21,298 nt of DNA from Candidatus Thorarchaeota archaeon SMTZ1-45 (GCA_001563335.1 LRSL01000042.1:1-21298); one strand, 5' to 3'. Counted from the stretch's first letter, positions 1 through 21,298 are shown. Notes: generated from the sequence alone by a model not told the origin. Program-made: numbers and translations.

Positions 1-765
1 GTGAAGCAGTATTATGCTTCAAAAATGGGAAGAACCTACAAGACCACAGACCCGAGAAAGACGAGTTGGGAAAAATCTGGAACCTCAATGATAGGGTGGA
101 TGTCGCGATTCGGTTCAAGCCTTGACATGCCCTTCAAGTCCATCTCACTGTTTGTGGGAAGTTGGATGCTCTTGGAGATTGGATGGCCAATTTTGACCAT
201 ACTTGGGATTGTGACAGCTGGATCTGTCTGGAGTGTTCCCTCTTCAATCGCATCAATGTTCATCGTTGTCTATGGGCTAGTATTGATCAGTGGGGTCAAT
301 GTGGTCAGGAGTCTTATAGTACAACTTACTGGACAAAGGGACAATCTTGTGAAAGCATTGTTCAGAGGTTATTTCTGGAGTCTGTTGGTTGTTGGACTGA
401 TTCTGACCATTCACCAGTATTTCCATAGTCATCTACCTTTTCTCTACCTGATTCCCATCATCTACCTTCTTCCAATAGAGATCCTCGGTAACACAGTTCC
501 AATACCAATTCCTCTAGGGATCACAGGGATGTACATGGACATCATCGTGATGGTGCTCATCTACGTCGTGGGGATAACAGGGAGTTGTATAGGTGGACTG
601 GAGATATTGAAACACTTCATCGATAGCTCCCGTCAAAGAGGGAGTTATCATGCTATTCTCTCCGTGCTGATACTAGCAGTCTTTCCGGCGATGAATATTC
701 ACTTCTCAGTTGTCTTCTTGAACTCCATTCTTGACCTGTACAGGGGGTTGATTCTCGGTGCTTGA
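1..765 (+). CDS. Multi-pass membrane protein of unknown function, probably 5'-truncated by the window edge
   Basis: Open frame from base 1 to TGA 763-765 with about 6 long hydrophobic segments. The stop overlaps the GTG start of the downstream ATPase (758), suggesting translational coupling. Confidence 0.75.
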   Translation: MKQYYASKMGRTYKTTDPRKTSWEKSGTSMIGWMSRFGSSLDMPFKSISLFVGSWMLLEIGWPILTILGIVTAGSVWSVPSSIASMFIVVYGLVLISGVNVVRSLIVQLTGQRDNLVKALFRGYFWSLLVVGLILTIHQYFHSHLPFLYLIPIIYLLPIEILGNTVPIPIPLGITGMYMDIIVMVLIYVVGITGSCIGGLEILKHFIDSSRQRGSYHAILSVLILAVFPAMNIHFSVVFLNSILDLYRGLILGA

Positions 766-3481
766 TCCATTGGCTTTTCTCAATATGGCAGTCCCATTTC
801 TCGTCCTGTTTGGCGTCAGTATAATGACAATAACCCTAGTTCACCTTGGTCTGTCAATCAGTGGAAGCCGGTTTCAGACTGAGATAAGCACAATCCTTGG
901 ACTTGCAGTGTTCATTGGTATGCAGTTTCTTCTTGGAATCTATGAAACATCGTGGACTCTTCTCATGGTATTCCTTGTGACTCCATTGATGGTATATGAG
1001 GCTGTACGTCCACTCACTGAGAATGACAGGGTTTCTTTTCTCTTGGATACTTTCGCTGAGTGTGATGATGTTCTTTGTTTCTCTCATGGTGGTAGGTATG
1101 TGGCTTTAGGAGCTATGAAAATCATTGGTCTACCAAGAGAGAAACTGCCACCAGCTACCAAGGATGATGTGGATGATGAACTGAAGATTCTGCATCCACT
1201 CTGGGAAAACAGCAAGCAGTCTGGAGCGACCTTCACAATCGAAGCGAGGGTGGTAGATGGTCTTGTAGAGTTAGTCGTCTTTGTGCTCTTGAGGGGAAAG
1301 GACTGGAAGTCAACCATAGAGAGAGTGAAGCAAAGCAGAGAGTATATTGAAACTTGGTTGAACCAGATGGACTACTCCTATGAGATACTTGGCGGAGCGA
1401 GTCTTGAAGAAACCTACAAGGCTCTGAACATTGATTCAGTTGGAGTACTGAGAGCAGAGGGTATCCCAAAGAGGCTCTCAGGCAGTCTTGGCTTACTGGT
1501 TCAGCGTCTCGTTGAACAGAGAGTTGATGCGAGTGTCCAACTCTCATTCTCATCAGGCGTCATTCCTCGTCTTAGTAAGGACTCGGGGATTCAGCATGGA
1601 AACCCAGAGAGACCGCCTAGGATTCCACATCGCGTGGAAGACCACAATCTCCGTTCCATGTACAAACAGATGGTTGAGATAGAGGCATGTGAAGAAACTG
1701 GCGTCTTTCGTTGTGGTATGAACATCCTCGTGCATGGAGAGAGTACTTTGCAGCAAGTAGAGTCGATAATCAAATCGGTCTGGAGTGATGTGAAGATCAA
1801 AGCATCACCTATTGGGAAGGTTTCACGGAGCTGGAATAGGTATCTCTTGAGAAATCAGATTCAAGGCACTGTATCCATGAGCGGGGCTCGACTCTATGCC
1901 CTCATTGATCTGTCTGAACCCCTTCCAGGTGTTCCTCGACGTTTCACACCTCCAGAGTTTCTGCTGCCAATGCGTGATTCTGAAACATCAGACATGGTCC
2001 CTGTTGGATCAGTCATGCTCAAGAGAAAGAAACTGGACCAAGTATATGGAATTCCAAAACATCATTTCTGTCATCATTTAGGACTCTATGGCGGCACGGG
2101 TTCCGGGAAGACGAACACAGCCAAGCATCTTCTCGATGAGCTGAATCAGTTGAATGTCCCCTTCCTCGTATTTGACCCATCTACAACGGAGTTTCGTGAG
2201 TTATGTGAACGGGTAGATAATCTTCGGGTCTTTACAGCTGGTGATGAAGACACTGCACCATTTCGATTCAATCCGTTTCATGTTCTTTCGGGAGTCCCAG
2301 TTCACAAACATATTGAGAATTTAGCGACCTGTTTCATTGCGTATTGGCCAACAGAAGGCATCCTTGTGGAGCATATCACGAAAGTGTTCAAACGCATGTA
2401 CGCCTTGGCTGGATGGGACGAACTCTCTAATACTCGCGGTCGTACAGTCATGCTCTCTGACTTGACCGAAGCAAAGGAGATGGTAATCAGTGAACTGGAA
2501 TATGGTTCACGACTGAACCAAGACTTGATTGGAGCCTTCAAGGCTCGATTTGAATCCGTATTAGATGACCCAATTCTGGCTGTGATGCTGAACACTGAGA
2601 GAGGAATCACAATACCTGAACTGTTAGAGAATCCCACTGTTCTCGAAATGAGAAACCTCTCAGATTCTAAGGTAGGTCTTGTCACAAGCCTATTGCTTGT
2701 TCAAATTGCAGAGTACTTGGAAGCTCAAGGTCGGTTGCAAGACCAAGAACTGAAACATGTCTTGGTCCTCGAAGAGGCTCATCATGTCTTGAAACAGACC
2801 AACACTAACGGAGGTCTTTTTGATAGTCATGCCATTCAACAGCAGGCTGTCAACACGATAGTTCAACTGCTAAGAGAGGCTCGTGGGTATGGTCTTGGAA
2901 CAATATTTCTTGACCAAAGTCCCGGTGATTTAGCAATCACTGCTGTGAAAGTTCCTGGAATCACAATCACTCACTTCTTGAAAGACTCAAGAGAACGAAT
3001 TCTGGTAGGGTCGCAGGCTAATCTATCTGAGAGTCAAACCCGATATATTGGTGAATTGAAGAAGGGCGAAGCGATAGTTCACAGCGGTTTCAATGAGCAG
3101 GCAGTGAATATTCAAATCTCTCATTTTAGGGACAAGTATGTGGGAACAGGCGAGCCTTGGACAAACGAGAGAATTGCAGAATGGATGCAGGCATACTATG
3201 CATCCAGACCTTATATGAAAAGACAGCAGTTACCAATGATTGGGTCTTGGAAACCAGACCCAATAGTGCTTCGGAATCTTGAGTATGTTACAGAGTCAGA
3301 AGATTTCGTGGATAAAATCGAAGAATATCTTGACCCAAGAAGTGGATTTGCTGAGGTACTCGTTGAACGGCTTCTTCGAAAGCATCATGCTTCAACTAAT
3401 CCTACGGAGGTTCAACGCTACGTTTCCCTGTTCATCAACTATCTGACAGACCCTGAGAGGTGTTATGATGAAAGAGGGTAG
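758..3481 (+). CDS. Membrane-anchored HerA/VirB4-like (DUF87, FtsK-HerA superfamily) ATPase
   Basis: 907 aa with about 3 N-terminal TM helices. Walker A GGTGSGKT at 2090-2113, VFDP and RFNPF motifs, Walker B VLVLEEAH (EE at 2771-2776), LLREARGYG arginine-finger region and DQSP sensor motif. Confidence 0.88.
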   Translation: MLDPLAFLNMAVPFLVLFGVSIMTITLVHLGLSISGSRFQTEISTILGLAVFIGMQFLLGIYETSWTLLMVFLVTPLMVYEAVRPLTENDRVSFLLDTFAECDDVLCFSHGGRYVALGAMKIIGLPREKLPPATKDDVDDELKILHPLWENSKQSGATFTIEARVVDGLVELVVFVLLRGKDWKSTIERVKQSREYIETWLNQMDYSYEILGGASLEETYKALNIDSVGVLRAEGIPKRLSGSLGLLVQRLVEQRVDASVQLSFSSGVIPRLSKDSGIQHGNPERPPRIPHRVEDHNLRSMYKQMVEIEACEETGVFRCGMNILVHGESTLQQVESIIKSVWSDVKIKASPIGKVSRSWNRYLLRNQIQGTVSMSGARLYALIDLSEPLPGVPRRFTPPEFLLPMRDSETSDMVPVGSVMLKRKKLDQVYGIPKHHFCHHLGLYGGTGSGKTNTAKHLLDELNQLNVPFLVFDPSTTEFRELCERVDNLRVFTAGDEDTAPFRFNPFHVLSGVPVHKHIENLATCFIAYWPTEGILVEHITKVFKRMYALAGWDELSNTRGRTVMLSDLTEAKEMVISELEYGSRLNQDLIGAFKARFESVLDDPILAVMLNTERGITIPELLENPTVLEMRNLSDSKVGLVTSLLLVQIAEYLEAQGRLQDQELKHVLVLEEAHHVLKQTNTNGGLFDSHAIQQQAVNTIVQLLREARGYGLGTIFLDQSPGDLAITAVKVPGITITHFLKDSRERILVGSQANLSESQTRYIGELKKGEAIVHSGFNEQAVNIQISHFRDKYVGTGEPWTNERIAEWMQAYYASRPYMKRQQLPMIGSWKPDPIVLRNLEYVTESEDFVDKIEEYLDPRSGFAEVLVERLLRKHHASTNPTEVQRYVSLFINYLTDPERCYDERG

Positions 3482-5831
3482 GGATTTTGATGAAATTGAA
3501 GACGGTGACGGAAAGAAACTCTATACTCTAAAAGAACTCTTGTCTGAGGTTGAAATTGAGGAAGGTGATAACAGCGGGAGATCTATCACTGAGGATGACC
3601 GTGATAATCTTCTCAGAGAGATTCATGACGAATTACTCACTGAGAGTGAGAGAGATGAGTTAGTCAGGGACATCTCGAGGGTTTCAAAGGAGTTACATGA
3701 TACTGAGAATATTCCTAGAAGACCCACTTTCCAGGACCTAGACAAAAATGAAGTATATCGCCTATACTACGGAGAAAAGTTCTCTCAAGGAAAAGTGGCT
3801 GAAGTCTTAGGTTGTTCAAGACATGTGATACAGCAGGTTTTCTTAAATCAGGGATGGAAAACCCGATCAGTGGGTGGTGTTGAGAAAGACATCGACCCCC
3901 ACGAAGTCTATCGCATTTGCGTTGAAGAGGGGCGTCCCAAGAAAGAAGCCGCTGAGGCTCTTGGATGCAAGTCCACAAGACCTATCAATCGAGTCCTGAA
4001 GGAGAATGATTGGCAAACCCCACTCGAGCAAAAGATGGAAACTGAGATCGACCCTGATGAGGTTCACAGGTTGCATTTTGAGGAGGGTTGGTCTCTCAAA
4101 AGGATAGCCAATCATTATGGGTATGTATCAAAAGATGTCATTCAAAAAATGTTCAGAGAGAGGGAGTGGATCCCCATCGGCTTGGCTAGACGAATTGAGA
4201 GGTTATACGAATTTCCTTCAGAAATTGAAGAAGAACACCGAATTGAGTCATCAAGAATTAGGAATTCCTTTGACCATCTTAGAGAGAAAGAGAGCATTTC
4301 GCCTATGGACATGGCTCGTTGTATTGAAGATATCATATCTTCATCAGCTATTGAATCAAGAGTCAAATGGTTGAAGATGCAAACCGAACAGGACACAAAG
4401 ATCACTGATGTACTTGAGAACAGACGATTAGAAGTCGAGTCTTCGTTGAATGAGCTTCTCGATATCTCCAAGGACTCCAATAAGAAAGTACGTGTTGGGT
4501 TTATTGATGGAAAACTCTACATCAGGGAGCAAGATATCTCAGAGCACAACTGGTTGAACATTTATGACAACGAATTGTTCTACTTCAAATCTACGATTGA
4601 TAAATTCAAACTTGTACATGAAATGAGGGCTCGGCTAGGTTTGAGTAAGAACACAGATTTAGGCAAACTCATAGATCAGTTAACTGACCGAGAAGATGCA
4701 GATGGTTCTGGGTACAGTGACATAAAGGAAACTACGGATGAACATCTTCGTGCTGAGACTTTACAACTCATTCTTGACACCACAGGACAGATACTATCTG
4801 ATAATCAGGATATGATCGAGTGTATTGGCAAAATACGAGGTGGAAAATACGAGGGTCAGGGGGGTATCAGGAACCCAAGATTCCCAACCGATCCCGAAGT
4901 CATTGACATGATGTTTGCTAGGTTCTTTGGTCTTGGTCTATCAGACGGTCATCTGTGCGCAACGCATTCGAATTTCATCTACGCAGAGAATGATCGAAAC
5001 CGCCGTGCTATCGTGATACAGCATTCCAAGGACTTCGGTGATGTTTACTACAATGAAAAAGAGGTTGATGGAGAAGTCCGTCAGATTCAGTTCGCGTCTG
5101 CATTTGGAAGAGCTCTCAAGAAGCGGGGCTTTCCGGTTGGTGACAAGTGTTTTCTGAACATTGGTCTTCCAGACTTCATCAAGAATGGATCTTTGCAGAC
5201 TGTTTGTGTCTATTTCAGTAACATGTGGCCTGAAGATGGGTGTTTTGTCGTTACAGGCTCAGATAACCGTGGAGAATTCAAATGGGGTCGCTCGGTTGTT
5301 GTCAGAAACCCTTCAAAAGAGCTGGAATATGGACATGATAAGGAAGTGACTGATGCTCATTTAGCATTCCTTAAGGAATACGGAACATACATCAAAGAAG
5401 ACATTGACAACGATTTCAAAGAAAGGATTGAATTGGCTTCTACGACGCTCGAAAAACTTGCCAGGTCCGATAATCCCAGAATCTCATCAGTTGCGAATGA
5501 AATCAAAGATATTGTGTATGATAATCAGCCCAAGCTCCTACTAGATGAGATTGAAGTTCTACGCAGAATTGGAATACACGCAACGTCAAGATTCATAGAG
5601 ATTGACTACTCTATTGAAACATCAAGAGTATCAATAGCGTGGAGTGGAAGAATCCAGAGAAAGACCGATGTCATGAGGGCCTCTTTACAAATGTCGCCTG
5701 ATGATATTCGTAAGAGTGCCAAGGTTAGAGAGTGGATGAAACTAAATCCAGAGCTCATTAGACAAACTGAGAAAGAGATTAACCAAGGCAGAAATGGCAG
5801 TAGCACGCATAAGGGAACCACTGCCCGATAA
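3465..5831 (+). CDS. Protein with tandem HTH-like repeats and a C-terminal LAGLIDADG (intein/DOD-type) endonuclease-like domain
   Basis: 788 aa with an acidic N-terminus and three ~52-aa HTH-like repeats. LAGLIDADG-like motif 1 FFGLGLSDGHL (~4923-4955); motif 2 LPDFIKNGSLQTVCVYFSNMWPEDGCF (~5166-5246). Start overlaps the 3' end of the ATPase gene by 17 nt. Confidence 0.7.
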   Translation: MMKEGRDFDEIEDGDGKKLYTLKELLSEVEIEEGDNSGRSITEDDRDNLLREIHDELLTESERDELVRDISRVSKELHDTENIPRRPTFQDLDKNEVYRLYYGEKFSQGKVAEVLGCSRHVIQQVFLNQGWKTRSVGGVEKDIDPHEVYRICVEEGRPKKEAAEALGCKSTRPINRVLKENDWQTPLEQKMETEIDPDEVHRLHFEEGWSLKRIANHYGYVSKDVIQKMFREREWIPIGLARRIERLYEFPSEIEEEHRIESSRIRNSFDHLREKESISPMDMARCIEDIISSSAIESRVKWLKMQTEQDTKITDVLENRRLEVESSLNELLDISKDSNKKVRVGFIDGKLYIREQDISEHNWLNIYDNELFYFKSTIDKFKLVHEMRARLGLSKNTDLGKLIDQLTDREDADGSGYSDIKETTDEHLRAETLQLILDTTGQILSDNQDMIECIGKIRGGKYEGQGGIRNPRFPTDPEVIDMMFARFFGLGLSDGHLCATHSNFIYAENDRNRRAIVIQHSKDFGDVYYNEKEVDGEVRQIQFASAFGRALKKRGFPVGDKCFLNIGLPDFIKNGSLQTVCVYFSNMWPEDGCFVVTGSDNRGEFKWGRSVVVRNPSKELEYGHDKEVTDAHLAFLKEYGTYIKEDIDNDFKERIELASTTLEKLARSDNPRISSVANEIKDIVYDNQPKLLLDEIEVLRRIGIHATSRFIEIDYSIETSRVSIAWSGRIQRKTDVMRASLQMSPDDIRKSAKVREWMKLNPELIRQTEKEINQGRNGSSTHKGTTAR
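3735..4169 (+). repeat. Three tandem ~52-codon protein-level repeats (HTH-like)
   Basis: Units start at 3735 (DLDKNEVYRLYYGEKFSQGKVAEVLGCSRHVIQQVFLNQGW), 3888 (DIDPHEVYRICVEEGRPKKEAAEALGCKSTRPINRVLKENDW) and 4044 (EIDPDEVHRLHFEEGWSLKRIANHYGYVSKDVIQKMFREREW). Shared pattern: D-x-x-EV-x-R...A-x-x-x-G...I...W. Confidence 0.85.
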
Positions 5832-5962
5832 TAAGATTCAAAAGGAAATCGAAAGTTGCTCCCATTTGTAGTAAGAATAGGTTTGACAAGACCAGACCTG
5901 CAAAACTACTTGGTGAAACAGATGACATACCGAAGAATGATTTGTTTTCATACTAGTATAAC

Positions 5963-6700
5963 GTGGAGGGGGACACGTTAGGGAAAAGAGTCCTCGTCCA
6001 AAGGAAAGGACGTGGTACTACTCAGTGGAGGTCTCCAAAACACAAGAAGATAGCACCTGCTAGACATCCCAAGTGGGCTCCAAATAAGACCTACATTGGT
6101 ATTATTGTGAACCTTCATCACGAATCTGGTAGAGGCGCACCCCTTGCAGAGGTAAGGTTTGAGGGTGAGTCCAAGGTCCACTTTATGGTAGCACCAGAAG
6201 GAGCGCAGGTTGGTCAAATAATCGAGTGTGGTGATGAAGCAACTCTGGCAAACGGCAACACCCTGATACTTGAGCACATACCTGAAGGAACACCAGTCTA
6301 CAATATAGAAGGGAGTCCTGGGGATGGCGGTAAGTATGTAAAGGCCTCAGGTCTTGCTGCCACAATAGTTTCAATTGACAAGGCTAAAGCCATGGTTAGA
6401 CTCCCTAGTGGTAGACAAAAAGCCTTCAGCCCAAGATGCCGTGCAACTATAGGCATCGTAGCTGGTGGTGGTCGTCAAGAGAAACCATTCCTGAAGGCTG
6501 GTGCAAAATGGCATCATACTCGTGGAAAGGCTCGAAAGTGGCCTGTTGTGCGAGGTGCAGCAATGAACGCAGCATCACACCCACATGGTGGTGGTTCTCA
6601 TCAGTCACCTGGTAGGCCCTCTACCGTCAGTAGACATGCACCACCCGGTCGTAAGGTTGGTAACATAGCGGCTAGGAGAACCGGACGCAAGACCAAGTAG
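5963..6700 (+). CDS. rpl2: 50S ribosomal protein uL2 (L2), archaeal type; start uncertain (GTG 5963 or TTA 5978)
   Basis: Characteristic uL2 motifs GKRVLVQRKGRG, HESGRGAPLA, RLPSG, WPVVRGAAMNAASHPHGGG and APPGRKVGNIAARRTG. Confidence 0.97.
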   Translation: MEGDTLGKRVLVQRKGRGTTQWRSPKHKKIAPARHPKWAPNKTYIGIIVNLHHESGRGAPLAEVRFEGESKVHFMVAPEGAQVGQIIECGDEATLANGNTLILEHIPEGTPVYNIEGSPGDGGKYVKASGLAATIVSIDKAKAMVRLPSGRQKAFSPRCRATIGIVAGGGRQEKPFLKAGAKWHHTRGKARKWPVVRGAAMNAASHPHGGGSHQSPGRPSTVSRHAPPGRKVGNIAARRTGRKTK

Positions 6701-6826: not shown

Positions 6827-7012
6827 ATGCGTCTCATAGCAGTGCACTTACCAGAGAAGATTGTTGAGGACATTCAACGCCTTGTAGACAAAGGTCTCTA
6901 TCCTAACAGATCGGAAGCCATTCGAAACGCCATCCGTGACCTACTAAAACGAGAGTTATGGGAAGGCACCCTAAACATGACTGGAAAGTTGAGTGAGGTA
7001 GTCGGACAATGA
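6827..7012 (+). CDS. cdrS: Ribbon-helix-helix (CopG family) transcription regulator, CdrS-like
   Basis: MRLIAVHLPEKIVEDIQRLVDKGLYPNRSEAIRNAIRDLL fits the RHH pattern, including the YPNRSEAIR signature. ATGA overlap with ftsZ matches the conserved archaeal cdrS-ftsZ2 arrangement. SD-like GAGGA upstream. Confidence 0.85.
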   Translation: MRLIAVHLPEKIVEDIQRLVDKGLYPNRSEAIRNAIRDLLKRELWEGTLNMTGKLSEVVGQ

Positions 7013-8268
7013 AATCATTGATTGATGCTGCACGGGAACATAGTCGTGGAGAACGAGGTATGTCTACAATCCGTGATATGGGACAAGCTCGGATTCTGGT
7101 TGTGGGCTGTGGCGGTGCTGGAAATAATACAGTAAAACGCCTTATGACTATTGGAGTCCAAGGTGCTGAATGCATAGCAATAAACACTGATCGCCAACAC
7201 TTAGCAATCACAACAGCTCACAGAAAACTCTTGATAGGTGAGAGAATCACACGTGGACTGGGAGCTGGTGGTTATCCACATGTTGGAAGAGCTGCCGCAG
7301 AGGAATCGACAGGACAGCTGACCGAGCTTCTAAGAGATGCTGATTTAGTCTTTATTGCAGCAGGAATGGGGGGTGGTACTGGTACAGGAAGTGCCCCTGT
7401 TGTTGCTGAAATTGCGAAGAACAATGATGCTATTGTTGTTGGTGTCATTACAATGCCTTTCAATCTTGAAAGGACCCGAATTGATAAGGCAAAAGCTGGT
7501 CTGGCTCGTCTACAGGAAAATGTAGACACGGCTGTTGTTATTGATAATCAAAAATTAATGGAGCTGGTTCCAGATCTCCCGCTCGAGGAAGCCTTTGGAG
7601 TTGCAGACGAAGTTCTTGCGAACATGGTGAAAGGTATTACTGAAACGATAACCATGCCAAGTCTGATCAACCTAGATTATGCTGATGTTCGCTCAATAAT
7701 CTGTAATGGTGGAGTAGCTCTTGTAGGTCTCGGCGAAGCCACAGGAGCAGATCGTGCCAATGAGGCAATAAAGAACGCTCTCAATAGTCCTCTCCTTGAG
7801 GTAGAATGGAGTGGAGCAACTGGCGCATTAATTCATATAACCGGAGGCCCAGACATGAGCCTCGCAGAAGCAAATAAGGTCGGGGAACTTGTATCCGAAA
7901 AGATGAGCCAAGATGCCAATGTCATCTGGGGCGCTCGAGTTGACCCAAGACTTGGTGGTGTTCTTCGTGTTATGCTCATTCTCACAGGCGTTAAGAGTCC
8001 TCAACTTCTAGCTCGCTCAAAAGAAGAAACCCCACTCTCCTCAACTACAAAACGCCTAGCAGAATATGGAATAATCAGTGCTCAGACAACAACACTTGGG
8101 TCCAGGGAAACACGGGCGCGTGCTTTTGGAAAAATCCCTGAATCCACCGAAAGGACTTGGGAAGAGCGTCTTAAGCCACTGGAACGTACATTGACACGAA
8201 AACCAACAAAGGAAAATGAAGCTAAGAAGAAGGAAATTGAAGAGCTGGGCTTAAGAAGACTTCTCTAG
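7009..8268 (+). CDS. ftsZ: Cell division protein FtsZ (likely FtsZ2 clade, from the cdrS context)
   Basis: VVGCGGAGNN, AINTD, tubulin signature GMGGGTGTG, intact T7 loop INLDYAD and VIWGA, followed by a ~90-aa C-terminal tail. Confidence 0.97.
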   Translation: MKSLIDAAREHSRGERGMSTIRDMGQARILVVGCGGAGNNTVKRLMTIGVQGAECIAINTDRQHLAITTAHRKLLIGERITRGLGAGGYPHVGRAAAEESTGQLTELLRDADLVFIAAGMGGGTGTGSAPVVAEIAKNNDAIVVGVITMPFNLERTRIDKAKAGLARLQENVDTAVVIDNQKLMELVPDLPLEEAFGVADEVLANMVKGITETITMPSLINLDYADVRSIICNGGVALVGLGEATGADRANEAIKNALNSPLLEVEWSGATGALIHITGGPDMSLAEANKVGELVSEKMSQDANVIWGARVDPRLGGVLRVMLILTGVKSPQLLARSKEETPLSSTTKRLAEYGIISAQTTTLGSRETRARAFGKIPESTERTWEERLKPLERTLTRKPTKENEAKKKEIEELGLRRLL

Positions 8269-12703: not shown

Positions 12704-13531
12704 ATGGTCTCTCAAAAGCACTTTGCACTCCAGTATCTTCGAGAAGAAAGCCTTCCAAGTCCATTTTGTCCAGGCTGTGGCGCTGGAGAAGTGTCCAATG
12801 CGTTTCTAAAAGCAGCCAAAGACTTGGGACATGAAACTCTCAGAGGATTTGCCTTTGTCTCTGGCATTGGTTGCAGTGCGTGGATTCCCTCGCCTCACTA
12901 TCAGGCTGATACACTACATACAACCCATGGTCGTGCAATCGCATTTGCCACTGGTCTGAAACTCGCTCGTCCTGAGTTGAAAGTAGTTGTAATAAGCGGT
13001 GATGGCGACCTCGCAGCAATTGGTGGAAATCACCTAATTCATGCAGCAAGACGCAACATGGACATGTCTGTGATCTGTGTGAATAATTATATCTATGGAA
13101 TGACTGGAGGACAGGTTGGCCCCACGACATTCACTGGAGACCGTACTAGTACAACTCCCTATGGTAATCCAGAGCGACCATTTGACTTAGCACGATTGGT
13201 TTCAGCGGCAGGTGCAAACTACGTTGCACGATGGACCACTGCTCATCCAGTTCAGGCTGCACGAGCTATAAAGACTGCCCTCGAAAGAGAAGGGTTCTCC
13301 TTCATTGAGATGATATCTCAATGCCCAACAGCATATGGTAGAAGGACGCATGCAGGTGAATCACCAGAGATGTTGAAATGGTTCAAGAGATTACCAGTTC
13401 GAAAGAGAGGAGATCCAATCACTCAACAAATTCCCACAAAAGAGGGAATGGACTTGGGAGTCTTTGCTGATAGACATGAACCCCCTTTCACCGAAATACT
13501 TCGTTCGATCTTCAGCAACCTTGAGGAGTAA
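12704..13531 (+). CDS. korB: 2-oxoacid:ferredoxin oxidoreductase subunit beta (KorB-like)
   Basis: FCPGCG, VSGIGCS, HTTHGRA, TPP-binding GDGD...NN, YGMTGGQ and SQCPT. Start moved from TTG 12638 to ATG 12704, which has GGTG upstream and gives a typical N-terminus length. Confidence 0.92.
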   Translation: MVSQKHFALQYLREESLPSPFCPGCGAGEVSNAFLKAAKDLGHETLRGFAFVSGIGCSAWIPSPHYQADTLHTTHGRAIAFATGLKLARPELKVVVISGDGDLAAIGGNHLIHAARRNMDMSVICVNNYIYGMTGGQVGPTTFTGDRTSTTPYGNPERPFDLARLVSAAGANYVARWTTAHPVQAARAIKTALEREGFSFIEMISQCPTAYGRRTHAGESPEMLKWFKRLPVRKRGDPITQQIPTKEGMDLGVFADRHEPPFTEILRSIFSNLEE

Positions 13532-13537
13532 CACCTG

Positions 13538-14062
13538 ATGAAGACAGAGATTCGTATTGCTGGAACTGGAGGAATGGGTGTAGTTCTTATTGGTGTCATT
13601 ATTGGACACGCTGCTGTTGTTTATGGTGGTCTCGAGGCTGTCCAAAGTCAAAGTTACGGTTCAGAAGCCCGGGGCACTTCAGCAAAGAGTGAAGTGATTG
13701 TGAGCAATCAACCAATCAATTATCCCAAAGTCAGGTCCTCGGACTATCTTATCGCAATGTCACAAAAGGCACTCGATTTGTATCTACCAGAGGCTAAGAA
13801 AGGCAGCACAATTATTGTTGATCCCGATCTTGTAAATATTAAGAACATCTCAGGCTATGAAATCGTTGAAGTTCCAGCAATGAAGATTGCTGATGAGTTG
13901 GGAATGCGGCTTGTTTCAAACATGGTGATGCTAGGAGCATTTGTAAAGAAGTCTGGACTCTTCCCACTTGAGAGTCTTCAGAAGGCAGTTGCTGATTTGA
14001 TTGGCACCAAGGCTCTTGAGATAGATATCAAAGCGATACACGCTGGAGCTGAACTTGTCTAG
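13538..14062 (+). CDS. korC: 2-oxoacid:ferredoxin oxidoreductase subunit gamma
   Basis: EIRIAGTGGMGV, QSYGSEARG, SEVIVS and NMVMLGA. SD GAGGAG upstream. Confidence 0.92.
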   Translation: MKTEIRIAGTGGMGVVLIGVIIGHAAVVYGGLEAVQSQSYGSEARGTSAKSEVIVSNQPINYPKVRSSDYLIAMSQKALDLYLPEAKKGSTIIVDPDLVNIKNISGYEIVEVPAMKIADELGMRLVSNMVMLGAFVKKSGLFPLESLQKAVADLIGTKALEIDIKAIHAGAELV

Positions 14063-14337
14063 CCTCCATGTATCAATGGAAGGACTATGATGACATCACC
14101 CTCACCAAGTCTTGTATCAAGTCCGTCACTCAGGCCAATATCTACCTCATTACATAGAATCAATGCATCGCGGTCAATCACTTCTGGACTTGCCCACATT
14201 TCCTTGATGCCTGTTTCTCTCTCAATCATCTCAATCAATAAGTCTGAGAGCCTAGCATCCTCCTCAAGTTCTATTTCAAAGAAGCCATCTTGTGACTTTT
14301 TAACTAGAGGTCCTCTGAGCTGAAGTGTGACTTTCAT
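14059..14337 (-). CDS. Ubiquitin-like beta-grasp protein (MoaD/ThiS/SAMP family, Urm1-like C-terminus)
   Basis: 92 aa ending LILCNEVDI...LGEGDVIIVLPLIHGG with a C-terminal diglycine. Its stop overlaps the korC stop within CTAG 14059-14062. Confidence 0.88.
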   Translation of the reverse strand: MKVTLQLRGPLVKKSQDGFFEIELEEDARLSDLLIEMIERETGIKEMWASPEVIDRDALILCNEVDIGLSDGLDTRLGEGDVIIVLPLIHGG

Positions 14338-14436
14338 TGTTTATTGCCACTCGCCCAAGGTGAGTGAATGCTTGATAAAGTGCTTGATTTATGCTCAAGT
14401 ATGAAGCTCTATATGGTATGAGTGTAAGCCGAGGTT

Positions 14437-15954
14437 ATGGACATGGAATGTGAGCAAGAAGAACCTGAGATTGTGTCAAGCAGGTATGCTAGAATCTTTG
14501 GCATTGCAGAACCGACAGAGAATGTAGTCCGCTTCATTAAGATTATATCAGTACTTCTTCCAGCTTTTGCTGCAAGCTTTCAAATCAGCACAACGTTCTG
14601 GATGATATATATCGCTGAGTCTCTAGGCAATGGTGACTATATAGCAGGTCTCACATTTGTTGGATTTCTAGTTGTTATCCAGATGGCCATCCAGACAGCA
14701 CTCGATTATCCTACAGGTGCTCTAGGAGACTGGATTGGCCAACGCTATGTGATATCTTCAGCTCTTCTCTGCTATGCAATAGCCTTCGGGCTCTCCTCAT
14801 TAATTGTGAAGAACACCCCTGCTCCCATCTGGATTTACATCGCTATCTATGCTCTTTTTGGACTTGGATCATCTCAGGAGAGTGGTGCGTTCAGTGCGTG
14901 GTTCGACAATAACTATCGGGTAGCTATGCCACATGACAAAGACCGCAAGCAGTATGGTGTTTTTCAGGGGCGGCTTGGGATGATATGGCAAGTATCAGGG
15001 ACCTTGGTTCTGCTTCCTGGATCTTGGCTTGCCTATTTATACGGAGAAACTTGGGTCTTCAGTCTACAAGCTATTTTTGCTGTGTTTCTAGCAATTGCTG
15101 TATTCAGACTTGTCAGAGACCTCCCTGGTGTTAGGGATGAACGAGAAGAACGACCTGCACTTGGAGAGTACATGTCTCTTCTCAAGGATGGTTTCCGTTT
15201 TCTCTGGTCCAGTAGATTTGTCACATTCATTATGCTCGGAGGCGTTGTGATGTGGAGTATAGGACCTGTTTGGTGGAATCTTTTGTTATTCCCACTCTAT
15301 TTCAGTTTCCTTGTAACACAAGTTGCGGTATCTGCCTTTAGGACCTTAGTATTTCTTCCACAGGCTATTGCTAATGAACGAAGTGGTGTACTAGCGAAGA
15401 GATTTGAACCAAAGAAATGGATTCCCCGTTTCAGAATTCTGCAGTTTATGGGTGTGATTTTTTATTTAGCACTTGCAGTCATAGTATATCTCTTCCCAGG
15501 TATTCCAGCAGGGACAGACCCAGCAACTATTGAGTTCTATAAAGTACTGATACCCTTCACAACTCTCTCGTTGATTGAGATTCCTGTCCAGACAGTTATC
15601 CCTGTAATTCTCCTCTTCATACTCTTTGTAGGCTTGAACATGTTTGGTGCAATTGCGGATATTTTAACCCAAAGAGTGATGTTAGATGTCATTCCCAACC
15701 GCATCCGAAATTCAATGTACTCTTTGCAACCCACACTGGTCATGCTAATTTCCATGCCACTCATTGCTTTCTTTGGATGGTTTGTTCCATTCACTGGAGG
15801 TTTCCTATTGACTTTCTTGATTTGCGCATTCATATCTCTATTATCAGTAGTGATGATTCGAGCTGCATTCAATAATCCAATTCCGAAGGCTGATGAGGTA
15901 GTGCCTGCATCGAAAGAGGAGCAGAAAACAGTCCAAGAGCTCGAAGTCACATAA
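14437..15954 (+). CDS. MFS transporter
   Basis: About 12 TM helices. MFS motif A-like DYPTGALGDWIGQR and SQESGAFSAW. SD GAGGT upstream. Confidence 0.88.
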   Translation: MDMECEQEEPEIVSSRYARIFGIAEPTENVVRFIKIISVLLPAFAASFQISTTFWMIYIAESLGNGDYIAGLTFVGFLVVIQMAIQTALDYPTGALGDWIGQRYVISSALLCYAIAFGLSSLIVKNTPAPIWIYIAIYALFGLGSSQESGAFSAWFDNNYRVAMPHDKDRKQYGVFQGRLGMIWQVSGTLVLLPGSWLAYLYGETWVFSLQAIFAVFLAIAVFRLVRDLPGVRDEREERPALGEYMSLLKDGFRFLWSSRFVTFIMLGGVVMWSIGPVWWNLLLFPLYFSFLVTQVAVSAFRTLVFLPQAIANERSGVLAKRFEPKKWIPRFRILQFMGVIFYLALAVIVYLFPGIPAGTDPATIEFYKVLIPFTTLSLIEIPVQTVIPVILLFILFVGLNMFGAIADILTQRVMLDVIPNRIRNSMYSLQPTLVMLISMPLIAFFGWFVPFTGGFLLTFLICAFISLLSVVMIRAAFNNPIPKADEVVPASKEEQKTVQELEVT

Positions 15955-18806: not shown

Positions 18807-19643
18807 TTAGTCCTTCTTGGCCCCACTTGCCGAAATCCTCCCAACTTCGATTGGAGTTTCTGAGAACATCATAGGCTGATTTGGGGAGTAAGATGGTTCC
18901 TGATTTACTAGTCTCATGATCATCTCATCTCCTGAATTAAAAGCCCTTCTGAACTGTATCTCCAAGATTGGACTGTAGAGTAACAGAGGGAGAAAGATTG
19001 TTATCATCACATATCTTAATGGCCAGAGATTATAGTCTGCTGGATCAAGAAGTATCTGATTCAGCTTGAATGCCACCTCAAAGAATGCCCACCAAAAACC
19101 AACGAAGATAGAGATCTGTCGAATATGTTTCAGTCTGTTGAACAATCTAAAAGTATCATCCACCCATTCATCATACTCTTGATGCCCAAGCGGATATTGA
19201 AGAACGCCATGCTTCTGTGCTGAGATCGCAGCAAGCTTTCCGATGAATTCCTTGTTTTCATTCTCAATGACGACAAGAGTTCGAAATCGTTTTCGGAAGA
19301 ATCCACCTATTGTCATGATTGAGAAAGCTAACATCACGATGGCCCACACAATAGTAAGAGCTATCATTACTGCTACTATTATTATGAGGCAGATAACTAC
19401 ACCCTCTTCACCACCACCAGCACCTCCACCATTGCAATAACAATCGCCGCCCCCACCACAACCGTCACCAAATACCTCGGAAGTCACTGATACACGTCCA
19501 GTTTCTGGTGAATAGACAGCATTACTTCCAGGATTTATACCAGTGATACTCTCAATCTCCTTTTTGAGAGTCGAACCAGATATTCCATATGCTCGAATCG
19601 CGAGTGGTTTCTTTGGCTCACTTGTTTCGGAATAGTCATCCAT
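18807..19643 (-). CDS. Hypothetical membrane protein with a Gly/Cys-rich segment
   Basis: GDGCGGGGDCYCNGGGAGGGEEG followed by a long hydrophobic helix and two further TM segments. ATG 19643 is preceded by GGAGG/GGAG; the track start is GTG 19661. Confidence 0.72.
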   Translation of the reverse strand: MDDYSETSEPKKPLAIRAYGISGSTLKKEIESITGINPGSNAVYSPETGRVSVTSEVFGDGCGGGGDCYCNGGGAGGGEEGVVICLIIIVAVMIALTIVWAIVMLAFSIMTIGGFFRKRFRTLVVIENENKEFIGKLAAISAQKHGVLQYPLGHQEYDEWVDDTFRLFNRLKHIRQISIFVGFWWAFFEVAFKLNQILLDPADYNLWPLRYVMITIFLPLLLYSPILEIQFRRAFNSGDEMIMRLVNQEPSYSPNQPMMFSETPIEVGRISASGAKKD

Positions 19644-19716
19644 TTGCTCCAACCTCCACAATTCTAGATGGTCTTTATGATTATGACTTCTTCGATATTG
19701 TGTTGTTAGGGTTTTT

Positions 19717-20366: not shown

Positions 20367-20444
20367 TGGAGCCCCTGGCGAGATTTGAACCCGCGACCTT
20401 CTCCTTACCAAGGAGACACTCTAACCGAGCTAAGCTACAGGGGC
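20367..20444 (-). tRNA. tRNA-Thr(GGT), intronless, CCA encoded
   Basis: Reverse complement folds as a cloverleaf: acceptor GCCCCTG/CAGGGGC, D arm GCTT/GAGT, anticodon arm TCTCC-TTGGTAA-GGAGA, T arm GCGGG-TTCAAAT-CTCGC, discriminator T, then CCA. Length 78 nt. Confidence 0.97.
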
Positions 20445-20549: not shown

Positions 20550-21298
20550 ATGAGGAATATTTTCAAAGGGCTATCCTTCATTATGCTCATTCTTCTACTA
20601 CTAATTTCACCAACAGATAAGCTGACTGAAAAAGCCAGAACTGCGAGACACATCACCTCAGGAGAGTCTGCATCCACTTCAGATCCTTTCGGAATTATCA
20701 AAATAAGAGGTGGAGAATATATTGTTCATAACGGTGTCTGGGGCGCAGAAACTTCACAGACAGTAACTGTATATGACACCGATGTTTGTAAATTCAATGT
20801 GACACATTCAAATCACTCCCAAAACCATGTTGCTTCTTACCCGGCTATCTGCAAAGGTTCTACTTGGGGTCTGACCACTACAGGTTGGAAATCAATCCCG
20901 ATCAATGAGCTTGAATATGCGACTTTCAATTGGAGTGTGAATAGTTATCGTCCCTCAGGAATCTATAATGTAGCGGCAGAATCCTGGTTTAGTTCAGATC
21001 TTGACACCAGTTCAGGCTACAGCGGGGGAGGAGAATTAATGATTTGGATGGATACACGAGGGATGGTTCCAGGGGGAAGTAAGGTTGGTGATTTCGGTTT
21101 TTATGAGGTCTGGTACAGCTTAGTTGATCATAATTACATATGTTATTACATGACTGGACAAAACTCTGCTGAGATAGACCTCCTTGACTTCATCAATGAT
21201 GCCCTAAGTAGGGGATATCTCAACTCAACATGGTATTTGCATGATGTAGAAGCTGGATTTGAAATCTGTAGTGGGGGGGAGGGGCTCATGCTTGAGTC
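20550..21298 (+). CDS. Secreted glycoside hydrolase family 12 (endo-beta-1,4-glucanase-like); 3' end beyond the window
   Basis: Translated by hand; absent from the ORF track because there is no stop in the window. Signal peptide MRNIFKGLSFIMLILLLLISP, then YIVHNGVWG, VASYPAI, YNVAAESWF, GELMIW (nucleophile E162, 21033-21035) and WYLHDVEAGFEI (acid/base E238, 21261-21263). Confidence 0.9.
   Translation, partial: MRNIFKGLSFIMLILLLLISPTDKLTEKARTARHITSGESASTSDPFGIIKIRGGEYIVHNGVWGAETSQTVTVYDTDVCKFNVTHSNHSQNHVASYPAICKGSTWGLTTTGWKSIPINELEYATFNWSVNSYRPSGIYNVAAESWFSSDLDTSSGYSGGGELMIWMDTRGMVPGGSKVGDFGFYEVWYSLVDHNYICYYMTGQNSAEIDLLDFINDALSRGYLNSTWYLHDVEAGFEICSGGEGLMLE

Follow-up and report, generated by a model that had tools for sequence, protein, structure and literature searches.

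The left end of a contig of Candidatus Thorarchaeota archaeon SMTZ1-45 carries three overlapping genes directly in front of rpl2, the gene for ribosomal protein uL2, and these genes may specify a membrane-bound DNA pump that works together with a site-specific nuclease on a mobile island. The stretch analysed, referred to as the window, comprises contig C42 from base 1 to base 21298 (GCA_001563335.1, LRSL01000042.1:1-21298); the genome to which it belongs (G000) is 88% complete, is distributed over 119 contigs and holds no sequence further to the left. Labels starting with G denote genomes, those starting with C contigs, and those starting with L loci of relatives or metagenomes. The open reading frames (ORFs) and other features on which the argument depends are the following, positions being in nucleotides (nt) and protein lengths in amino acids (aa).

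1 to 765, + strand: ORF1, membrane protein (ORF call), 5' end open at the contig start
758 to 3481, + strand: ORF2, predicted membrane-anchored HerA-clade P-loop ATPase, 907 aa, GTG start
785 to 1015: predicted transmembrane (TM) helices of ORF2
2090 to 2113: Walker A motif of ORF2
2759 to 2776: Walker B motif of ORF2
2867 to 2899: LLREARG motif of ORF2
3465 to 5831, + strand: ORF3, site-specific-nuclease-like protein, 788 aa, ATG start
about 3735 to 4187: helix-turn-helix (HTH) repeats of ORF3
4215 to 5828: family domain of ORF3
about 4893 to 5765: predicted two-domain LAGLIDADG core of ORF3
4929 to 4952, + strand: first LAGLIDADG-type motif, GLGLSDGH (ORF3 aa 489-496), from alignment and model
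5220 to 5243, + strand: second LAGLIDADG-type motif, NMWPEDGC (ORF3 aa 586-593), from alignment and model
5832 to 5985, + strand: right-hand island junction, composed of 131 non-coding nt and the replaced 5' end of rpl2
5963 to 6700, + strand: rpl2 (Pfam Ribosomal_L2_C, 3.3e-42)

As a sequence-only reading of the same DNA had stated, the three genes are co-directional, with overlaps of 8 nt between ORF1 and ORF2 (758-765) and of 17 nt between ORF2 and ORF3 (3465-3481), and end 131 nt before rpl2. On the 3' side of rpl2 lie a gene for a CopG-type ribbon-helix-helix (RHH) protein and ftsZ. Conserved homologues were retrieved for all three ORFs (77 clusters for ORF1, 44 and 22 for the other two), indicating that they are real genes rather than chance ORFs. 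Where source names were given, these homologues came from Thorarchaeota, those of ORF1 all being from Thorarchaeota or metagenomes. Contigs of four DNA sequencing runs, from four studies, span the region, the passage from ORF3 to rpl2 being bridged only by the run that is possibly the source of the contig. No loose ends or joints were reported in the four runs, and the gap to the left of the window stayed open. Among RNA runs, none was listed that contains the region.

ORF2 begins with three hydrophobic helices (aa 10-28, 43-61 and 65-86) and possesses intact Walker A (GGTGSGKT, aa 445-452) and Walker B (VLVLEE, aa 668-673) motifs, in agreement with the earlier description of an ATPase with N-terminal TM helices, as well as a conserved LLREARGxGLG motif after Walker B. 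The region of about 330 aa between the TM helices and the motor was assigned to no class. The protein passes the cut-off of the Pfam DUF87/HerA central domain (1e-10; 42.6 bits against 23.2). Similarly, a profile of 32 members of the ORF2 family, compared with the sequences of the PDB, retrieved HerA-clade chains at the top (8yho, 5.1e-19; 4d2i, 1e-16), as well as 8j4u with its further entries, 8wiv, 8xau and 9c1m at E-values of 1e-15 to 1e-16, several of which we take to be HerA proteins of anti-phage systems. The same profile reached the VirB4 chain 4ag5 at an E-value of 0.0037 and EccC at 0.0019. In addition, matches to the Pfam P-loop models TraG (23.6 bits, cut-off 25.8) and TrwB (20.4 bits, cut-off 20.5) covered the P-loop region only and were below threshold. 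Hence, of the proposed HerA/VirB4-like nature of the ATPase, the HerA clade stands, whereas membership of VirB4 falls below the cut-off. Among the named NCBIfam families, the best match was CedD, the ATPase of the crenarchaeal Ced system (1.7e-16; 60 bits). Linkage with nurA, mre11 or rad50 had been named beforehand as a sign of a housekeeping HerA, and none of these genes was found at any examined ATPase locus. Overall, the sequence features of ORF2 are those of a membrane-anchored HerA-clade motor other than the housekeeping HerA.

ORF3 has an acidic N-terminus followed by an HTH part, in which weak Pfam matches (aa 96-125) and three repeats of about 50 aa, recognised by eye (aa ~91-241), were found; a homologous repeat array in a protein of locus L035 matches Sigma70_r4 with an E-value of 1.1e-19. 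Its ATG start is backed by homologues starting at the same position. An AlphaFold2 model of aa 251-788, built from 22 sequences, had a pLDDT of 88.7 and a pTM of 0.87. With Foldseek, all 12 matches to the PDB at E <= 0.001 were LAGLIDADG endonucleases, and the probability was 1.00 for PI-SceI, TliVMA and I-Tsp061I. With VIA-align, all 50 entries listed had the LAGLIDADG fold, with Z-scores ranging from 14.9 (7qsu; root-mean-square deviation 2.5 over 193 residues) to 9.1 and covering model residues ~227-517, that is, ORF3 aa ~477-767. The two motif helices (model residues 227-244 and 327-341) end in GLGLSD494G, after which a strand follows, and in NMWPED591G, respectively. Among 22 family sequences, D494 and G592 were invariant and D591 was conserved in at least 90%; the equivalence of both aspartates to the catalytic metal-binding acids was judged from their position on the helices rather than from a residue-level superposition. 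The Pfam models LAGLIDADG_1, LAGLIDADG_2 and LAGLIDADG_3 did not match ORF3 at E <= 0.1, and feature and structure neighbours of ORF3 in the ESM Atlas carry PF14528, which provides a lead. ORF3 is thus predicted to adopt the two-domain (pseudo-dimeric) LAGLIDADG endonuclease fold with its motif acids kept, which bears out the original guess of an HTH/LAGLIDADG protein. PI-SceI, TliVMA, PI-PfuI, I-Tsp061I, I-DmoI and WhiA share this two-domain fold with the model (Z 12-15). Like WhiA, ORF3 joins the fold to HTH modules, although its HTH array is N-terminal instead of C-terminal, and it keeps the motif acids that WhiA has lost. Unlike the homing enzymes, ORF3 lies outside any intron or intein, has a conserved extra domain of ~226 aa before the core, goes undetected by the Pfam LAGLIDADG models and belongs to a family that is often translationally coupled to a HerA-clade ATPase. 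Neither a signal sequence nor a hydrophobic segment was found in ORF3.

A multi-copy family, present in 50 of the 201 Asgard genomes sampled, is defined by the last ~540 aa of ORF3. It occurred in 29 of 43 genomes of the family to which the window belongs and in 14 of 19 genomes of a second Asgard family; in three others the matches were weak or partial, and 22 families had none, full-length matches (E < ~1e-100) being confined to the first two. The 244 clusters of this nuclease family (50% identity, E <= 1e-30) always have the domain at the C-terminus, after 0 to ~1070 variable residues. A genome carries from one to seven or more matches, many of them short or stop-containing. On contig C69 of the window's own genome, a 61-aa ORF (near 13358-13543), which is a remnant of the ATPase family, directly precedes a full-length LAGLIDADG-family gene (13552-15807), suggesting frequent decay of such ATPase-nuclease modules.

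ORF1 contains six hydrophobic segments, as expected from the earlier estimate of about six TM helices. A homologue of 261 aa on a metagenome contig (L042) is 95% identical to it, from which it follows that the ORF1 of the window is short by ~7 codons. An AlphaFold2 model based on 27 sequences (pLDDT 76.6) consists of long helices and one beta-hairpin (aa 152-174), and no Pfam or NCBIfam family matched the protein. The ORF1 family is rare, occurring as a single copy in 9 of the 201 Asgard genomes sampled. Pattern-based scans of IMG/VR, which are of low sensitivity, retrieved no viral relative with the ORF1 profile, ORF2 or ORF3.

The three genes are part of a longer operon in relatives of the strain. 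Full-length orthologues of the ATPase (42-48% identical) were found in 7 of 60 other genomes sampled from the order. A scan of a genome-contig collection with ORF2 returned nothing, and a metagenome scan returned one locus, L042. The seven loci with full-length orthologues, together with L042, L140, L141 (G222:C215) and the window, made up 11 examined loci, in all of which a homologue of ORF1 lies directly 5' of the ATPase gene, usually overlapping it, so that the co-occurrence proposed for these two genes was confirmed. The order in relatives is a small 2-TM protein, an anchored protein, ORF1, the ATPase and a fifth gene that is nuclease-type or variable. Both upstream genes were present wherever the sequence reaches (L035, L036, L037, L039, L040 and L141; L041 has the anchored protein only), which accords with the expectation that the cassette extends to the left and includes a small 2-TM, pilin-like gene. 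The small protein has 104-108 aa and two hydrophobic helices, its likeness to pilins being one of topology, the only property assessed, whereas the anchored protein has 206-245 aa, an N-terminal signal-like helix and two C-terminal helices. The 104-aa 2-TM protein (L035:9489-9803, with homologues in L036, L037, L040 and L141) is 74-97% identical between loci, as compared with ~45% for the ATPases, making it by far the most constrained part of the cassette. In divergent orientation, five loci carry genes for a winged-helix regulator, a protein of 205 aa and a KaiC-like ATPase. The incomplete genome of SMTZ1-45 itself yielded none of these upstream genes. The genes encountered downstream of the ATPase were the following; in L039 and L040 the contig ends inside the ATPase gene, so that the next gene is not covered.

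Window, L042 and G222:C215: LAGLIDADG-family protein
L140: protein with an HTH array and an HNH-like end (a lead only)
L035, L037, L038 and L041: protein of ~700 aa of the 'p722' family
L036: 1087-aa protein of unassigned kind

The third gene was therefore rightly suspected to vary, the position after the ATPase always being occupied by a nuclease-like or variable gene. The nucleases of L042 and G222:C215 represent a different paralogue, only 24-25% identical to ORF3. The p722 family (640-722 aa) is named after the 722-aa member in L035, and in L035 and L038 it is followed by an HTH-array protein, HNH-like in L035. The HNH-like end of the L035 and L140 proteins was recognised from a Cys/His pattern by eye and a sub-threshold Pfam match (E 0.11, L140 only). 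The idea that p722 is a hidden LAGLIDADG protein was rejected, as hhalign against the ORF3 family gave a probability of 0.1 and no Pfam model matched. Between the window and L042, identity amounts to 95% for ORF1, 76-96% for aa 1-400 of the ATPase, 54-74% for the motor, 22-44% for the ATPase tail and 25% for the nuclease. The drop towards the nuclease is steady, and the variable end of the ATPase thus changes along with its nuclease.

The combination of a HerA-clade ATPase with a LAGLIDADG-family protein extends beyond the operon. When genes on the same strand and within 6 kb of each other were counted, dropping rows with HTH similarity only and adding the window pair by hand (its overlap representing a negative gap), 30 of 70 ATPase-domain matches in 61 genomes of the order had a gene with the C-terminal domain of ORF3 downstream. 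At the paired loci inspected, the two genes abut or overlap and the ATPases have 850-1180 aa; those of L073, L077, L079, L080, L085 and L086 have three to five predicted hydrophobic segments, mostly N-terminal. Some of these paralogous pairs occupy one conserved place near a ZIP-type transporter gene in three genera. A neighbour of paralogous pairs, a 260-aa protein with 6-7 TM segments, was considered as an analogue of ORF1 and discarded, its consensus motifs, judged by eye, resembling those of a ZIP-type metal transporter. At eight paralogous loci the nuclease gene is followed by a gene for a soluble protein of ~196-200 aa without Pfam match (L075:10699-11301, L077:6625-7218, L081:6098-6691, L083:12533-13123, C85:12203-12793 and others), which is not present after ORF3 of the window.

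The three genes of the window belong to an island that splits rpl23 from rpl2. Among 14 loci fetched from the same genus, 12 have the uninterrupted order rpl3-rpl4-rpl23-rpl2, and 11 of these 12 run straight on to the RHH gene and ftsZ, G217 having two genes between rpl2 and the RHH gene; the rpl23-rpl2 spacer is 12 nt long in L123, the one locus measured. A published survey also gives uL3-uL4-uL23-uL2 as one segment in four Thorarchaeota genomes (PMC10833476). In SMTZ1-45, rpl3-rpl4-rpl23 is found on a separate contig, C26, where rpl23 and the first seven bases of rpl2 (ATGGGTA) are followed by 7 kb of other genes up to the contig end; their products include proteins of 808 (secreted-type), 228 and 437 aa, together with small membrane proteins. 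Homology to uninterrupted rpl2 resumes near 5981-6005 of the window, the first codons having been replaced and a new GTG start at 5963 being supplied by the insert. If C26 joins C42, the insertion at the rpl2 start would measure at least ~13 kb. The rpl2 region was matched in 26 of 28 genomes of the genus; an ORF3-type gene precedes rpl2 in three of them (G000, G222 and G031), and the match is limited to rpl2 in the other 23. The island is therefore strain-variable, being present or absent at one fixed site beside a conserved gene. Outside SMTZ1-45, conservation of positions 5840-5924 (79-84%) is limited to the two genomes with an ORF3 orthologue at rpl2. The closest relatives at the locus (G221, G013 and G219, with 84%, 82% and 81% nucleotide identity) are without the ORF3-type gene, which the more distant G222 and G031 possess. 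The insert at rpl2 of G222 measures 3.6 kb and contains an ORF3 orthologue (67% identical) as well as a reverse ORF of 194 aa. Between G000 and G222, the left junction is displaced by 4 nt and the right junction is common to both. At either end of the insert, rpl2 codons 2-4 are retained as a short, imperfect repeat, and the left end on C26 and the right end in the window share no terminal repeats, whether inverted or direct. About 12 kb away on the same G222 contig, C215, a complete five-gene cassette lies beside the orthologue of the window gene at 18807-19661. A second ribosomal-protein gene is affected too: in G016 an orthologous cassette abuts rps2, with its HTH and HNH-like gene last, and in G013 a fragment of such a gene adjoins rps2, while the other five rps2 loci examined (four fetched and one on the own contig C24) keep the normal operon upstream of rps2. 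The position of the cassette at the end of a strain-variable island, the ORF3 orthologue at the same site without ATPase and the multi-copy pairs, mostly without ORF1, go beyond what had been read from the window.

Some further observations concern the surroundings of the island. On C26, a segment of 158 nt, made up of the 3' end of rpl23, a Shine-Dalgarno sequence, ATGGG and ~65 nt of the left end of the island, occurs twice (3299-3456 and 6908-7065; locus L138) with 89% identity and brackets 3.5 kb with two secreted-type genes, which looks like a second, nested or tandem insertion. The rpl2-ftsZ neighbourhood collects other insertions too. In G217 (L130, G217:C64), rpl2 is separated from the RHH-ftsZ genes by a TnpB/Cas12f-like gene and an ORF of 1615 aa; in G024 (L131, G024:C30), five unrelated genes replace most of rpl2, of which the 3' ~300 nt remain; and in G016 (L125), a solitary LAGLIDADG-family gene with small ORFs is found just after ftsZ. 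The RHH gene itself (window 6827-7012; Pfam RHH_1, 2.7e-08) overlaps the start of ftsZ (7009-8268) by 4 nt and adjoins ftsZ in 12 of 14 fetched genus loci, suggesting a small RHH regulator co-translated with FtsZ. At the far end of the window, ARAGORN and Rfam indicated a tRNA-Thr gene (GGT) at 20367-20444 on the - strand, the sole RNA gene in the window; the five-gene cassette of G222 is situated on the tRNA-Thr side of the orthologue of the window gene at 18807-19661, and its contig stops before the tRNA position.

Two groups of DNA-transfer systems offer the closest comparison. In excerpts of the published descriptions, CedD is composed of a TM domain, an N-terminal domain and a HerA/VirB4-like ATPase (PMC11868833), and CedA1, CedA and CedB are a small 2-TM protein, a multi-TM protein and a TM-ATPase, respectively (PMC9905601). 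As far as these excerpts go, the Ced system of Sulfolobales (CedA, CedA1, CedA2, CedB and CedD) and the Ted system of Thermoproteales thus unite a TM-anchored HerA-clade ATPase with two other membrane proteins, one multi-TM and one small and 2-TM, as does the cassette in the relatives of SMTZ1-45, and ORF2 has the layout of CedD, with an N-terminal domain before the motor. The same component descriptions list no nuclease, whereas the present cassette has one. Moreover, the Ced genes, which DNA damage induces, are conserved and belong to the chromosome, whereas the cassette is rare and situated in variable islands. A second parallel is TdtA of the Thermus element ICETh1, described in the sections consulted as a membrane-bound HerA-like hexamer whose operon also encodes a restriction enzyme and a NurA-like nuclease, both needed for efficient DNA donation (PMC5365140). 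Both cases thus have a membrane-bound HerA-type ATPase and nuclease genes in one operon of a mobile island. According to those sections, the partners of TdtA, which acts in transjugation, are NurA-like and a type IIG restriction enzyme instead of LAGLIDADG or HNH-like proteins, ICETh1 has a recombinase, 47-bp repeats and insertion in a tRNA gene, whereas the present island is situated at the rpl2 start and no recombinase was detected in it, and no partner resembling ORF1 or the 2-TM protein is mentioned. Further, the HerA-NurA, Sir2-HerA and DUF4297-HerA systems, to which the closest solved structures by profile belong, also have a HerA-clade ATPase encoded beside a nuclease or effector. They differ from the present pair in that its partner has the predicted LAGLIDADG fold, without a NurA, Sir2 or DUF4297 match, and in that its ATPase is much longer, is membrane-anchored in this subfamily and shows no linkage with mre11 or rad50. 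A HerA-type motor with a nuclease is therefore a known theme, to which the cassette adds a Ced-like membrane setting and a LAGLIDADG partner.

Given the gene structure and junctions observed, the folds and families computed, the conserved gene order and the insertion polymorphism, the interpretation that we tentatively prefer, without regarding it as probable, is that of a DNA pump in the membrane which cooperates with a site-specific nuclease, both being encoded on a mobile island, in a manner comparable to Ced or TdtA; it is also the most economical mechanism. ORF3 would locate a DNA site by means of its HTH array and LAGLIDADG core and cut it. The ATPase, presumably a hexamer, would then load on the DNA and translocate it at the membrane, in a complex with ORF1, the 2-TM protein and the anchored protein, the outcome being DNA exchange of the Ced or TdtA kind. 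Nuclease activity of ORF3 with its target at rpl2 could also account for the fixed and highly conserved site of the island. For the contacts presumed between the proteins, a complex prediction of ATPase aa 440-907 with ORF3 aa 251-775 returned a score of 0.01 ('no answer'), which is uninformative on binding.

Several results weigh against this interpretation. Firstly, ORF2 is far below every curated family cut-off (CedD, 60 against 600 bits; VirB4_plasma, 27 against 590), so that, of the kinship with Ced that had been put forward, CedD as the closest named family stands and membership does not; the pump proposal therefore concerns a mode of action and not descent. Secondly, a comparison of ORF1 with CedA and VirB6 had been proposed, and neither ORF1 nor the small proteins showed a detectable likeness to CedA or VirB6. 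In the case of ORF1, Foldseek of its model against the PDB gave no match at E <= 0.001, exhaustive VIA-align gave generic helical bundles only (best Z 8.0) and its profile retrieved nothing from the PDB sequences up to an E-value of 10; VirB6 was absent among the fold matches listed, weak helical membrane matches being easily missed, and no solved structure of CedA or TedA was available for comparison. Thirdly, the nuclease often does without the ATPase, and the pair without the membrane. With the thresholds used, 74 of 104 nuclease-domain matches had no upstream ATPase match (30 being paired), and in the second Asgard family only one of ten inspected nuclease loci (L149) had one, nine being without. 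Similarly, the ATPase has no TM helix in 6 of the 16 inspected pairs (L075, L078, L081, L082, the split L084 and the own C85), and no ORF1 homologue was found near the inspected paralogous pairs, which implies that the core pair needs no membrane. Fourthly, for 14 pairs the congruence between the ATPase and nuclease trees is no more than partial (Mantel r 0.46, reached by 11 of 5000 permutations), the test being weak because related loci share ancestry; the window and L042 are sisters in the ATPase tree and not in the nuclease tree. Partners have also been exchanged between loci. Lastly, as regards the island, the G222 insert at rpl2 has no trace of ORF1 or the ATPase beside the ORF3 orthologue; the extent of the SMTZ1-45 insertion depends on the presumed join of C26 and C42; and no pilus-assembly, relaxase, integrase, att-type recombinase, replication or capsid genes occurred in the islands examined, an integrase or att sites having been named beforehand as features to look for. 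A SIR2_2-domain gene (6e-19), apparently in two ORFs (L036:16433-18148, on G033:C60), just 3' of an orthologous cassette is a hint of defence. As a whole, the sequence-only interpretation is partly supported.

Among the alternatives, that of ORF3 as a selfish, free-standing LAGLIDADG homing gene targeting rpl23-rpl2, with ORF1 and the ATPase as unrelated cargo or neighbours that were carried along or inserted later, is a serious one, though unlikely in our estimation. Homing would explain the presence or absence of the gene at a single, highly conserved site (3 of 26 genomes with the gene), its occurrence in G222 and G031 and not in nearer relatives, and the ORF3 orthologue that stands alone at rpl2 in G222. 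Both motif aspartates are kept, the family is multi-copy with common remnants and is mostly solitary in the second Asgard family, and the HTH and HNH-like genes at rps2 of G016 and, as a fragment, of G013 form a parallel. The divergence gradient between the window and L042 would represent a co-conversion tract. What such a gene does not readily explain is the adjacency of ATPase and nuclease, which holds across deep paralogues (ATPase domains 28-39% identical) with abutting or overlapping frames and is thus unlike a gene that merely landed beside others, nor the nuclease-type gene of one fold or another at the same downstream position in ORF1 cassettes. Further, ORF3 is 67% identical between G000 and G222 as compared with 75-91% for the flanking proteins, giving no sign of recent transfer, and the short imperfect direct repeats that flank the insert are not produced by classical homing.

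A further serious alternative, which we nevertheless consider improbable, is that the ATPase and nuclease serve conflict or defence, as in the Sir2-HerA, DUF4297-HerA and HerA-NurA systems, with a HerA ring that scaffolds or activates the nuclease against invading DNA; the ORF1 cassette would be the membrane-tethered version of such a module and the islands would be defence islands. LAGLIDADG enzymes recognise long, specific sites, a property that poorly suits a general anti-virus effector. In addition, the ATPases have 900-1200 aa, of which 400-550 aa precede the P-loop, whereas the matched solved defence HerA chains have 562-696 aa, and some paralogous pairs are fixed at one chromosomal place, near the ZIP-type transporter gene, in three genera. 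Defence is nonetheless consistent with the solved structures closest by profile, which are HerA proteins, presumably anti-phage in several cases, with the patchy, multi-copy and strain-variable distribution, with the swapping of nuclease partners between loci, with the SIR2_2 gene near the L036 cassette and with a neighbourhood that collects other insertions, including the TnpB-like gene. PADLOC matched the ATPase weakly (HerA models, 1e-10; mad8, 1e-17), and none of its models matched ORF1, ORF3 or the partner proteins of two paralogous loci.

Protein export in the manner of type VII secretion, with the variable nuclease as a polymorphic effector recognised by the variable C-tail of the ATPase, is very improbable: although that tail co-varies with the variable downstream gene, the ATPase is membrane-anchored with membrane partners and the ~196-aa gene after the nuclease at eight paralogous loci could be an immunity-like partner, the ATPase is HerA-clade (EccC reaching only 0.0019), ORF3 has no signal or hydrophobic segment and a long DNA-recognition array that makes sense inside the cell, its orthologues occur without the ATPase, no immunity-like gene follows it in the window, and nothing supports the exported effector that had been offered as an option.

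To return to the membrane DNA pump, a more far-reaching and quite doubtful version would be an archaeal mobile element without integrase that enters the starts of ribosomal genes (rpl2, rps2) by means of an exchangeable homing-type nuclease, carries its own DNA pump and has soluble ATPase-LAGLIDADG relatives. If such an element exists, its pump, consisting of the 2-TM protein, the anchored protein, ORF1 and the HerA-clade ATPase, would be unrelated in sequence to Ced and would be the first cell-to-cell DNA-transfer apparatus proposed for Asgard archaea. If, instead, ORF3 is a selfish gene, it would clearly exemplify the invasion of a core ribosomal operon by a free-standing homing endonuclease; a search of the literature at the level of titles and abstracts turned up no such case for archaea. 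Likewise, no description of a HerA-type ATPase paired with a LAGLIDADG protein was found in the full-text literature, searched by title and start of the abstract, subscription journals and supplements being outside its scope.

Asgard archaea are the closest known relatives of eukaryotes and, to our knowledge, almost nothing is known about their DNA exchange and the make-up of their mobile elements. The analysis defines a diverse, unnamed LAGLIDADG family that is recurrently coupled to long HerA-clade ATPases, with a membrane-embedded version in islands that split otherwise invariant ribosomal-protein operons. From a practical viewpoint, a LAGLIDADG scaffold fused to a modular HTH array, with the rpl23-rpl2 junction as its candidate target, may be of use. 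If the pair acts on DNA in the way suggested, this lineage would have a candidate for DNA transfer, or for integration guided by a nuclease, that can be tested, and the LAGLIDADG family would represent a new type of partner for the theme of HerA plus nuclease.

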